A stretch of 64,000 nucleotides of DNA. It comes from a virus. Where the stretch lies: IMG/VR virus record IMGVR_UViG_3300035698_022389, positions 68,880-132,879 of that record. One strand, given 5' to 3'. Position 1 is the first letter of the stretch. Every line of letters begins with the position of its first letter. A model generated the notes under the pieces. That model did no database searches, was not told the DNA's origin, and saw nothing but the letters and a program-made list of their open reading frames with translations. Made by a program: the position numbers and the translations under genes. Shown here one piece after another: positions 2-63,226 of this stretch.

Positions 2-136
2 AATTTAAAACAACTCGCTGAAAGTCATTCAGAGAGTATAAATGCTTGTGGAGATGAAAGTTCTGGTCAGTGCGTTGCCCTTTGGGCAAGCAAGGACGAA
101 ACTATTATCTATGAAGCAAGAAATGGCCATTGTTAA
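2..136 (+). CDS. tnpB: 3' fragment of a probable IS200/IS605-family RNA-guided endonuclease TnpB (5' part outside the window)
   Basis: Frame +2 is open from the window edge: NLKQLAESHSESINACGDESSGQCVALWASKDETIIYEARNGHC*. The NL..LA.S..ES.NACG..SSG tail resembles what follows the RuvC-III DxNAAxNL motif in TnpB proteins, and it overlaps a structured right-end-like sequence. Catalytic residues are off-window, so activity cannot be judged. Not in the ORF track. Confidence 0.68.
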   Translation, partial: NLKQLAESHSESINACGDESSGQCVALWASKDETIIYEARNGHC

Positions 137-177
137 CCAGTAGGGTTAACTGTTCAAGTCCTTTATGACTAAAGTGG
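34..177 (+). ncRNA. Putative TnpB omegaRNA (reRNA): scaffold about 34-157 ending TTCAA, putative guide 158-177 GTCCTTTATGACTAAAGTGG
   Basis: Hairpins TTGCCC-TTT-GGGCAA and GTTAACC-AGTAG-GGTTAAC. Long-range pairing TGCTT(43-47)/AAGCA(114-118) and AGAT(52-55)/ATCT(107-110). TTCAA at 153-157 matches known IS200/IS605 right-end boundaries (TCAA). Conserved in a second copy at 63083-63226. Confidence 0.62.
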
Positions 178-184
178 TGGTGTT

Positions 185-1573
185 ATGGCTGAATTAATCA
201 CATTAGAGGGGGCTGTAGAAAGCTCTAAAGCAAAGGGGCCACAAAAAACAGGTGGTGAGGATAGGGCTTTGGTTTCAGCTATGGCCGTGAAAAACCCACC
301 AGCTCCATTAGCCTATCAGTATTTGAACGTGGGACCCGAGTTGTCTATTGAGATGGAAGACATTTCAACAGACCAGATTGATAATACTCGTCAAATGCTC
401 CGAAATCTGTCTCCTTTTGTTATTCAGATTGAACCACCAGCAGCTTTCCAGTCATATACTTCGGCTCCTAATGCAGCCAATAGCCCAAACATAGGCCTCT
501 ATGATATAGCTAACGGGACGGCATCCAGTTATCAGAAAGCTCGTGAGGCTTTGACTCAAGATTCGTTTTTATCGGGAATCTCCAGTAAACAAACATCAAT
601 GAATCCCGAAGAATTTTTAGCTTCTTCGGGATATAAAGCAGGCAAACTTATTGGGGATTTAAGGGATGTTACCCCTGATAATGCTGACTTATCTCCACGA
701 GGAAGACCTGCCCTACCTGATCTTTTGACAGTGATGGATATGCGTCTGCAAGTATCAAATATTCTTAACATCCCACCTCTGGTGTTGTTAATTAACCCAG
801 CATCTTTCCAGATTCAATACACTAAAATTCAGCAGTATCAAGACCGTAGCCGGTATGGGTACATCCTCCATACTTGGGGTGAAGATCAGGCCAAGGTTTC
901 ATTCACAGCAAAGTGTGGGGCTTTTATCTCTGGTGGGAGAGGTGTTCATGTTGCCAGCCGGAATGATTCCAAATCCTGGCAAAACATGCAGAACCTGATG
1001 AGGTTTTATAAAAATAATGGGTATATTTATGACACCATGGGTCGATCGAATGCACATCTCCATATAGGATCTTTGTCCATTCGATATGATGGCTTCATCT
1101 ATTATGGCAGTATGGAATCGTTCACGTTTGAATTGAACGAGGATAATGAGCTTGGTGGTGTAGAGTTTAACATTGAGTTCACGGCTAATGGGATTCAAGA
1201 TACGACTCCTGACACGAACATTGTTCAGCCTATGAGGGCACCTTTGCCAAGTATTGAAGATCAACGATACATGAATTCAGGTAAAAACAGACCTGGTGAG
1301 TATGCTTTCGGGATTGGGAGTGGCGGGGGCGCTCGTTTAACTACTCAGGGTCGAGAAGTTAGTGCCAGTGATGCTCTTGAGACGTTAATTCCCCATGATG
1401 GGGCCGGAGGGGCGGGAACTGAGCCTGCTGATCCCACGACCATTGGAATGACAGGTGGCATTGCTGACCAGTCAGTAGGAAGTCAGGCTTTCCGGAGCCC
1501 CAGTGATGTTGTAAGTGTAGATAAAGATGTAGAACAAGGTTCCGTCAACAGTGCAAAACCGTTTGGATTTTAA
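185..1573 (+). CDS. Virion structural protein, probable tail-tube initiator / baseplate hub-associated protein (462 aa)
   Basis: Central block PPLVLLINPASFQIQYTK...RSRYGYILHTWGEDQAKVSFTA resembles tube-fold initiator proteins of contractile tails. It lies directly upstream of the hub gene. Confidence 0.5.
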   Translation: MAELITLEGAVESSKAKGPQKTGGEDRALVSAMAVKNPPAPLAYQYLNVGPELSIEMEDISTDQIDNTRQMLRNLSPFVIQIEPPAAFQSYTSAPNAANSPNIGLYDIANGTASSYQKAREALTQDSFLSGISSKQTSMNPEEFLASSGYKAGKLIGDLRDVTPDNADLSPRGRPALPDLLTVMDMRLQVSNILNIPPLVLLINPASFQIQYTKIQQYQDRSRYGYILHTWGEDQAKVSFTAKCGAFISGGRGVHVASRNDSKSWQNMQNLMRFYKNNGYIYDTMGRSNAHLHIGSLSIRYDGFIYYGSMESFTFELNEDNELGGVEFNIEFTANGIQDTTPDTNIVQPMRAPLPSIEDQRYMNSGKNRPGEYAFGIGSGGGARLTTQGREVSASDALETLIPHDGAGGAGTEPADPTTIGMTGGIADQSVGSQAFRSPSDVVSVDKDVEQGSVNSAKPFGF

Positions 1574-1576
1574 GTA

Positions 1577-62330: not shown

Positions 62331-62610
62331 TTATCTACTTTCTAGTGATGAGCACTGTGGCTCTTCCGCTTGGATAGCTGTGTTTTCCTTGTAGTTTACA
62401 ATCATTGGGAATGGGTAGGTTGTAACCTTAACGGGTATCATTTTGATAAATTGAGCCTGTTGAGTGTCCACAGCAAGGGCATCAATTTTTGTTTGGTTGT
62501 TATTACAACCAGTCGGCCCCAATTAGCGTAATAATCATTAAGAGGACACTACAACCAGTTATCAGTCCAGTCAAAGTTAAAAGGAGGAGGGGCAGGAAAT
62601 ATTTCTTCAT
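62331..62610 (-). pseudogene. Lipoprotein gene split by an apparent frameshift (one extra base) in a G4 run
   Basis: ATG 62610 gives MKKYFLPLLLLTLTGLITG-C...IGADWL* (35 aa, lipobox). Removing one G from 62517-62520 fuses it to PTGCNNNQTKIDALAVDTQQAQF...ESR* ending at 62331. Confidence 0.5.
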
Positions 62611-62625
62611 AGTTTTTTGGGTCCT

Positions 62626-63039
62626 TTAAAGATTACAAACTATACGAACTGGTAATGGAATAGCACTTTTGGTTGTGGCAATTTGAGCAATGTTACACAT
62701 TTGGGTTTTGATAGCTGCACGTTGAATTCCCAACGATTGTGCTAGGTTTGTTTGGCTATCAATCTGAGCTTGGGTTATACGACTGGCCAGACCCTGGTAA
62801 TCAGCATGCATGGTCAGCATTTCTTGAGCTTTACCTTCAGTGTACTGGTAGGAAGTTTTGGTACTGATATGATCTCCATAGAGGAAGACTGGTTTCACAA
62901 TCATGGTTAAAATACCAAATGCTAGGCTGATAAAAAAGACTCCGAGAATCACTTTGAAGAGCAGCCCCATACCTTTATGGGCATGGTAACTGGCTTCCTT
63001 ATAATCCTCTTTATACTGCTTGTTGAATTCACTGGACAT
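62626..63039 (-). CDS. Single-pass membrane protein with helical extracytoplasmic domain (137 aa from ATG 63039)
   Basis: AAGGAG RBS before MSSEFN; TM segment LLFKVILGVFFISLAFGILTMIV; two C-terminal Cys. The track's ATG 63090 lies inside the putative guide motif. Confidence 0.75.
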   Translation of the reverse strand: MSSEFNKQYKEDYKEASYHAHKGMGLLFKVILGVFFISLAFGILTMIVKPVFLYGDHISTKTSYQYTEGKAQEMLTMHADYQGLASRITQAQIDSQTNLAQSLGIQRAAIKTQMCNIAQIATTKSAIPLPVRIVCNL

Positions 63040-63077
63040 TGTGTGACTCCTTTCATGAAAGTCAAAGTTTGTGCTAA

Positions 63078-63226
63078 GATTATTAGTCATAAGGGACTTG
63101 AATTGCTAACCCTACTGGTTAACTGCCCTTTTCTTGCTTCATAGATAATAGTTTCGTCCGTGCTTGCCCAAAGGGCATTGCAGTGACCTGTGACCAGAGC
63201 TCTCATCTCCACAAGCATTTATCCTC
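63078..63226 (-). ncRNA. Orphan omegaRNA-like scaffold (63226-63098, ending TTCAA) with putative guide GTCCCTTATGACTAATAATC
   Basis: About 85% identical to 34-172 by manual alignment (13 substitutions, 9 gap positions). Stems are retained, including an A-to-G change that leaves a G-U pair in the terminal hairpin. The TnpB frame is closed by a stop just upstream. Confidence 0.62.

Follow-up and report, generated by a model that had tools for sequence, protein, structure and literature searches.

Probable protein-less derivatives of a TnpB transposon, retaining their guide-RNA end, in a salt-lake phage

Two similar repeats, lying 63 kb apart in a salt-lake phage, raise the question of whether the short sequence shared at their tips is the guide of an RNA-directed system or the end of a mobile element. 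The stretch concerned (hereinafter the window) comprises 64,000 nucleotides, namely bases 68880-132879 of the 132,879-bp IMG/VR virus record IMGVR_UViG_3300035698_022389, which is estimated to cover ~25% of the genome. A preliminary description of the window recognized omegaRNA-like scaffolds of the TnpB type in the repeats and interpreted the 15 nt at their tips as a near-identical guide. Our analysis retains the scaffolds and reassigns the 15 nt: we propose, with a probability of roughly 0.85, that the repeats, together with two other copies, derive by internal deletion from a TnpB transposon of the lineage with a RAGATH-18 core and no longer encode its proteins, and that the supposed guide is the fixed right end of this transposon.

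The repeats themselves are as first described. BLAST within the record aligns window 34-172 (+) with 63083-63226 (-; genome 131962-132105) at 85% identity (E 9e-43), far above chance expectation, and pairwise alignment shows both passing through a GTTAACC...GGTTA(A/G)C hairpin and TTCAA into GTCCTTTATGACTAA versus GTCCCTTATGACTAA, with 14 of 15 positions shared, before they diverge; the terminal stretch common to them reads GTCC(T/C)TTATGACTAA. Two further copies lie upstream of the window, copy 1 at genome 47690-47842 (+) and copy 2 at genome 57425-57578 (-). With a covariance model of the family, four copies and no others are recovered from the whole record, the repeats of the window being copy 3 (window 10-171, 191 bits) and copy 4 (125 bits). 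Copy 3 is truncated by the window edge: the entire element occupies genome 68787-69050, its left end lying 93 nt before window position 1. Each of the four copies displays its own internal deletion, yet all retain the left end and the whole right end. Together with two insertions in L005 and one each in the salt-lake metagenome contigs L046, L052 and L054, we thus gathered nine distinct insertions.

Five lines of evidence, i.e., the copies, an empty site, metagenome contigs, the inverted repeat and RNA structure, establish the element boundary at GACTA(A). First, all nine insertions end in ...TTCAArTyCyTTwTG(A/C)(C/T)TA, and the 20 nt that follow are unrelated in every one; in particular, the predicted guides of copies 3 and 4 bear no relationship to each other. 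Second, in four related phages (L031-L034; 60-79% protein identity) the genes that flank copy 3 are separated only by ...GG(G/A)TAAAGTGAGGGTGTTATG..., giving the empty site GG(G/A)TA|AAGTGAGGGTGTTATG, where the sequence after GG(G/A)TA reads AAGTGAGGGTGTTATGGCTG; the occupied site is GGGTA|GGCAAAAGGG...ATGACTA|AAGTGGTGGTGTTATG. The flank of copy 3 is hence the original intergenic sequence, with the ribosome-binding site and ATG (window 185-187) of the downstream gene. Third, in a comparison of contigs from four salt-lake runs with genome 49400-69399, contigs bearing other flanks diverge exactly where copy 2 finishes on the right (57425/57426) and where the left end of copy 3 begins with GGCAAAAGGG (68787). 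The depth of these contigs over the elements is 3-5 times that over the flanks, and none of them has a joint skipping an element, as an empty-site allele would. Fourth, 16-18 of 19 positions agree between the left end TAGGCAAAAGGGACTTGAA and the right end read inverted, TAGTCA(T/A)AAGGGACTTGAA; therefore, the two ends form a terminal inverted repeat (TIR) of ~19 bp, to the right arm of which the shared 15 nt belong; in copy 3 this arm includes the whole of the guide first supposed. Fifth, RNAalifold pairs CCCTT within the 15 nt with AAGGG immediately after the core of the scaffold, and AUGACU at window 165-170 is complementary to the 5' hairpin loop AGUCA(U), forming a candidate pseudoknot. 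The two strands of the latter co-vary among subfamilies (AGUCAU/AUGACU here, GAUCC/GGAUC in the P0006 loci, and GUUCC/GGAAC, GUUAC/GUAAC and AGUUCU/AGAACU), with the 3' strand always 1-3 nt before the point where the flanks diverge. In the DNA, then, the shared segment is the right TIR arm ending in TA, presumably a transposase site, and in the RNA it closes the scaffold. As the 15 nt are a fixed element end, an outcome that the preliminary description itself had named as refuting its proposal, the guide is the sequence beyond GACTA, and this differs at each insertion.

The affinities of the scaffold emerge from a combination of RNA and protein comparisons. At gathering thresholds, Rfam yields no match on the window or on the loci of 13 relatives, and ARAGORN finds no tRNA or tmRNA. 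In a permissive scan, the best family is RAGATH-18 (RF03064), to the full model of which (1-71) window 45-122 aligns with 21.7 bits (E 0.074). Intact relatives adjacent to TnpB likewise fall below the gathering score, attaining only 26-32.5 bits, which implies that the Rfam model is narrow. In an alignment of 18 core sequences, 5 of the close family and 13 from beside TnpB genes in other viral contigs, RNAalifold recovers a fold of the RAGATH-18 type, in which 9 of the 16 predicted pairs have undergone compensatory change. Further, when applied to loci with an intact TnpB, the covariance model of the copies also matches their guide RNA (reRNA), its end aligning with their right ends. RAGATH-18 is known as the core of the reRNA of IS607-type TnpB, whose published layout comprises a 5' flank, a 73-nt core, a 64-nt 3' flank and a 20-nt guide drawn from the flanking DNA (PMC11061315). 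The right end of our copies encodes such a scaffold: a 5' hairpin, a RAGATH-18-like core, a 3' hairpin whose stem is conserved while its loop differs among the copies, and the terminal segment.

On the protein side, the 3' coding end of tnpB, C..CG..D(C/R)DLNASINLKQL, stands ahead of copies 1-3, always in a broken gene, whereas copy 4 has no such sequence. Copy 1 is associated with a 142-aa open reading frame (ORF) in which ~68 residues from the N-terminus of a TnpB are joined to ~30 from its C-terminus; copy 2 retains ~85 C-terminal codons, frameshifted; and copy 3 retains 34 codons, the last of which lie within the window along with the complete reRNA scaffold, its left end and a 56-nt left-end segment being just outside. 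Hence, the ORF upstream of the left repeat, which the preliminary description expected to be TnpB, contains tnpB sequence only as this tail, and the right repeat has none. In copy 4, an 18-nt left end, GGCAAAAGGGACTTTGAG, is joined directly to the core, with the 5' hairpin and all tnpB sequence deleted. The ORF of copy 1 matches 87 full-length TnpBs of ~360-410 aa, among them ones of 393-404 aa, with the domains PF12323, PF01385 and PF07282, the best match being P0002 with 60% identity at the N-terminus and 73% at the C-terminus; Zn-ribbon fragments are found at copies 1 and 2. We also observed a 14-nt tandem duplication, TGTCAAAAAGGACC, in the tnpB remnant of copy 2. Taken together, the RAGATH-18-like core and the remnants preceding three of the four copies confirm the scaffolds as belonging with TnpB. 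They also place the family in the IS607-type/RAGATH-18 lineage and not, as earlier assumed, among ISDra2-like IS200/IS605 elements: there is no PF01797 in the record, and the two ends are inverted repeats of each other rather than hairpins.

Comparison of the insertions indicates that these deleted forms are themselves mobile. Copy 3 and L046 share the same junction of the left end with the tnpB tail and are 93% identical, yet have unrelated flanks; similarly, copy 2 and L054 have the common 5' junction GGGTAG(A/G)AGTAATT with different flanks. The presence of identical deletion derivatives at unrelated sites implies that the derivatives moved, or were moved, in trans. They thus display the features of non-autonomous elements: they are protein-less, keep both ends, occur in several copies and include the same derivative at different sites. 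The left flanks end in GGGTA (4 cases), GAGTA, TGGTA and TGATA, which points to (G)G(G/A)TA as the predicted target motif or transposon-associated motif (TAM) side; it has only its last two bases in common with the scaffold end GACTA. As to the agent of movement, no match to the resolvase/serine recombinase (PF00239), Y1 (PF01797) or DDE_3 domains was recovered in the 133-kb record, while one viral record with RAGATH-18-type loci also encodes a resolvase-tnpB pair. The 19-bp imperfect TIR with TA at both junctions is consistent with a cut-and-paste transposase that duplicates TA or with a serine recombinase whose core is TA; close relatives with an intact TnpB end in ..CGG or ..GGT. A foldback mini-remnant at L005:11175-11215 (-), made up of TAGTCATAAGGGAC, 15 nt and GTCCCTTATGACTA, consists of two inverted right-end arms with only the last scaffold bases between them, which hints that either arm can serve as an end. 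One might go further and suppose that a TnpB/reRNA lineage exchanged its usual IS607 ends for TIR and TA and came to be moved by another TIR-recognizing transposase, a parallel in prokaryotic viruses to the capture of Fanzor by cut-and-paste transposons, with guide-only mini-derivatives then perhaps persisting because TnpB supplied in trans cuts insertion-free rival genomes; we regard this scenario as speculative and, on balance, unlikely.

Based on these observations, we advance the following plausible mechanism. The elements would insert between genes, after the (G)G(G/A)TA motif, mobilized in trans by a transposase encoded elsewhere. Since a promoter scan found no sigma-70-like promoter inside them, they would be transcribed by read-through from upstream phage genes, giving a transcript composed of the scaffold and the flank. 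All copies are oriented like the gene downstream and lie 12-120 nt upstream of it. Given a cognate TnpB in trans, such an RNA would guide cleavage of the insertion-free site; homing and retention by cleavage of the empty site is the established role of TnpB. The predicted guide of copy 3, in which the ribosome-binding site and start codon of the downstream gene are included, agrees at 18 of 20 positions with the relatives' empty site next to GGATA and differs from it at positions 6-7. Copy 4 is probably dead as a guide RNA because its 5' hairpin is lost, and L051 lacks half of the core; some copies are therefore dead as RNAs. Most likely, the copies in the record are selfish passengers or decaying relics.

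Several observations weigh against this interpretation. The RF03064 score of the window copy is well below the gathering score of 44.9. The RuvC D-E-D triad and tnpA, for which the preliminary description looked to the extended record, are not there: the RuvC core (PF01385) has no match in the 133 kb available, about a quarter of the genome, which hold Zn-ribbon fragments but no intact TnpB or transposase. Nor did the protein search or the contig scans reveal a near-identical full-length TnpB, the closest intact element (L040) having one just 60-73% identical over the matched regions. Regarding the pseudoknot, naive statistics are uninformative in that, with G-U pairs allowed, 5-nt complements are equally frequent in shuffled sequences, and a position-restricted test with Watson-Crick pairs only is borderline (P about 0.045); L040 has no obvious pseudoknot complement, and within the close family there is no compensatory base-pair change. 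The TIRs and the TA at the junctions depart from published IS607 elements, which have no TIRs and a GG core (PMC6188088; 10.1101/2023.11.20.567912). Finally, the retention of the RNA-coding end in all copies and their co-orientation with the downstream gene could mean selection for function.

This last point leads to the question of whether the RNA-coding ends are kept for use, either as guide-only genes working with a TnpB that the host or the remainder of the phage genome would provide in trans, for instance in cutting insertion-free competitor phages, or as structured 5' leaders for the genes behind. Such a role could account for the survival of the full right end whatever the deletion, for conserved stems beside variable loops, for the position of the copies just ahead of a gene and for the near-match of the copy 3 guide beside GGATA; moreover, most of the genome lies outside the record. 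Yet the scaffold is missing necessary parts in copy 4, L051 and L048; the insertion of copy 3 is absent from the four nearest relatives and hence recent; the elements have no sigma-70-like promoter; and the guide mismatches fall at positions 6-7, whereas the characterized ISFba1 enzyme is mismatch-sensitive (PMC11061315). Co-orientation, in turn, is equally expected of a selfish element dependent on read-through. Having found no positive support for a useful role, we consider it improbable.

Markedly less probable is the notion that the 19-bp arms are the halves of a pre-existing palindromic phage motif of ~33-38 bp, which was repeatedly hit by tnpB insertions. The two arms, if joined, would indeed form a near-perfect palindrome, and the L005 foldback brings two right-end arms to within just 15 nt of each other. 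Nevertheless, no trace of such a motif exists in the empty sites of the four related phages; the same arms flank the element in the unrelated context of L046; contigs with other flanks diverge outside the arms and not inside them; no uninterrupted copy occurs in the record; and L040, too, has the beginning of the left arm, TAGCAAAAG, ahead of its intact tnpB. The least probable of all, and excluded in the form given, is the original proposal that the 15 nt after TTCAA are a guide, fixed by selection as in the nuclease-dead TnpB repressors (TldR) or reflecting repeated targeting of one phage motif, and aimed at the phage's own intergenic DNA: their near-identity in all copies, the stray intergenic copy at window 61771-61789 and the two additional tandem copies of the last 14 nt of copy 2 are what one might cite for it, but the empty sites place them inside the inserted DNA, they are an inverted copy of the left end and structurally part of the scaffold, in relatives whose TnpB is intact the corresponding segment does not vary either (their flanks diverging after it), the record has no TnpB- or TldR-like ORF, the true guides are unrelated, and the motif occurs in the 133 kb only at element ends. 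With the 15 nt settled as an element end, this phage therefore has neither a self-targeting nor a domesticated RNA-guided system.

The interpretation of the repeats as deleted TnpB derivatives invites comparison with characterized systems. The nearest is ISFba1, whose reRNA (PMC11061315) has the same order of parts: the tnpB 3' end, a 5' hairpin, a RAGATH-18-type core of ~75 nt, a 3' flank and a variable flanking sequence used as the guide. The core signature CUGUGGAG / AUGAAGCAGGAA is common to the two, the pseudoknot PK2 of ISFba1 may be likened to the loop-to-3'-end complementarity of our copies, and the TnpB remnants here are homologous to the ~390-aa TnpBs. They differ in that our copies are below the Rfam threshold, have a 3' flank of 49 rather than 64 nt, are without a TnpB gene, end in ...ACTA and not ...GG, and have (G)G(G/A)TA as the predicted target or TAM-side motif in place of AGGAG/GAGGG. 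In terms of life-style, the closest counterparts are the palindrome-associated transposable elements (PATEs), IS605 derivatives without protein genes that have kept an omegaRNA gene and would need TnpB in trans (PMC10055086). Like these, the copies are non-autonomous, retain both ends and a guide-RNA gene, require a transposase and TnpB in trans and occur several times; in contrast to PATEs, they belong to another TnpB and transposon lineage, lack subterminal hairpin ends, reside in a phage, and show several internal deletions, of which two or more have spread in their own right. In IS607 elements with a serine TnpA (PMC6188088; 10.1101/2023.11.20.567912), the element and its left flank finish with the same two bases, as they do here (GG there, TA here) and as expected of exchange over a 2-bp core; the relationship of TCGG to TGGG in the CboIStron (10.1101/2023.11.20.567912) parallels that of GACTA to GGGTA. 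Published IS607 elements are nonetheless TIR-less and use GG, as opposed to the 19-bp TIR and TA of the copies, and no TnpA was found in this record. Fanzor elements (PMC10711439) likewise have a right TIR and TA that form part of the guide-RNA scaffold, but are eukaryotic or from giant viruses, whereas the present record is bacteriophage-like and its TnpB remnants are of the bacterial type. With TldR systems and their fixed guides, only a TnpB-type guide-RNA scaffold is held in common, there being no TnpB-like protein, conserved guide or conserved target here.

More generally, conservation beyond the final hairpin of an omegaRNA need not signify a guide; in this case, the conserved stretch is a terminal repeat and the end of the scaffold. 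As mini-transposons that retain a guide RNA, the copies in these salt-lake phages form a tidy natural series with defined boundaries, a predictable target motif and non-textbook ends. The series could help identify the transposases responsible for moving TnpB elements and show how far the genes for guide RNAs outlast the nuclease. The features of the two copies in the window are collected in Table 1.

Table 1. Features of copies 3 and 4 and of a solitary right-end tip, in window coordinates (TIR, terminal inverted repeat)
Feature	Window position	Strand	Basis
Copy 3, right-hand part of ~265-bp mini-element	1..171	+	covariance-model match, alignment
Copy 3, predicted 5' flanking hairpin CTCGCTGAA-AGTCA-TTCAGAGAG	14..36	+	structure prediction
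Copy 3, RAGATH-18-like core CUUGUGGAG ... AUGAAGCAAGAA	45..122	+	Rfam RF03064 alignment, covariation
Copy 3, 3' flanking hairpin GTTAACC-AGTAG-GGTTAAC	132..150	+	copy comparison
Copy 3, right TIR and 3' end of RNA scaffold, TTCAAGTCCTTTATGACTA	153..171	+	copies, empty sites, inverted-repeat match
Copy 3 flank, predicted guide, AAGTGGTGGTGTTATGGCTG	172..191	+	empty sites in relatives
Downstream gene, 462 aa, outside the element	185..1573	+	ORF
Solitary right-end tip CTTAAGTCCCTTTTGACTA, 18/19 versus right end of copy 1	61771..61789	+	directly after a stop codon
Copy 4 flank, predicted guide, ATAATCTTAGCACAAACTTT	63064..63083	-	flank comparison
Copy 4, 158-bp mini-element and flanking TA	63084..63243	-	alignment, covariance model
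Copy 4, right TIR and scaffold end, TTCAAGTCCCTTATGACTA	63084..63102	-	alignment
Copy 4, RAGATH-18-like core with 7-nt duplication GGTCACA	63130..63217	-	alignment
Copy 4, left TIR TAGGCAAAAGGGACTTTGA, preceded by the flank ..TTACGGGG	63225..63243	-	inverted-repeat match

Beyond the complete insertions, there are several fragments and local rearrangements. The solitary tip listed in Table 1 is a remnant or footprint of another copy; a solitary left-end arm, TAGGCAAAAGGGACTTGAA, is present at genome 34701-34719 after ..TTTATGG. Following the right end of copy 2 there are two extra tandem 14-nt units, GACCTTATGACTAA, which repeat the tip of that end (genome 57397-57424, -) and possibly arose by serial insertion at a target-like ..CTA end or by slippage. 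Beside full mini-copies, L054:6519-6584 (-) contains an inverted left-end region, and L051:5391-5626 a left end with the tnpB N-terminus and a Zn-ribbon remnant but without a right end; both sets of extra fragments are nested or clustered insertions. The hairpin loops of copies 1-4, L005, L046 and L054 fall into two haplotypes, TTT/AGTAG and CAA/CGTTT, independently of the deletion class, such that L046 combines the deletion of copy 3 with the loops of copy 1, suggesting recombination or gene conversion between copies. A blastn search against a phage collection and a scan of genome contigs with a looser core pattern gave no matches.

At the left junction of copy 3, a 32-bp tandem duplication (genome 68753-68817), spanning the last 18-19 nt of the flank and the first 13 nt of the left end, alters the C-terminus of the upstream gene (genome 68062-68775) to ..RRVGKRDWI* from the ..RRIK* of the relatives. 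This gene and the one downstream (window 185-1573) are paralogs sharing one domain, have no PHROG family and are 7-8 nt apart in the relatives. A tblastn alignment spanning the two ORFs had raised the possibility that copy 3 interrupts a gene; we rejected it, as the relatives also have two paralogous ORFs and the insertion is intergenic. The protein encoded behind copy 4 has no relatives in the viral contigs, and hence it furnished no second empty site. More widely, eight of nine neighbouring proteins lack a PHROG family. The exception is the product of an ORF running off the window end (63397-63999, -), with ~23-aa tandem repeats of the form LSEGFIREFQ.KVNW..IS..Q and a distinct C-terminal domain, which matches phrog_3532 (unknown function).

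A strong bidirectional terminator-like hairpin at window 62277-62315, with a 16-bp stem and T-runs on both strands, separates a long block of + strand genes from a short - strand unit headed by copy 4. Window 1577-61124 is taken up by a run of very large + strand ORFs, including ones of 1384, 3926, 2078, 1889 and 2150 aa; four of the smaller ORFs of this run (up to 1384 aa) gave no PHROG match, and the run is probably a highly novel virion or tail module.

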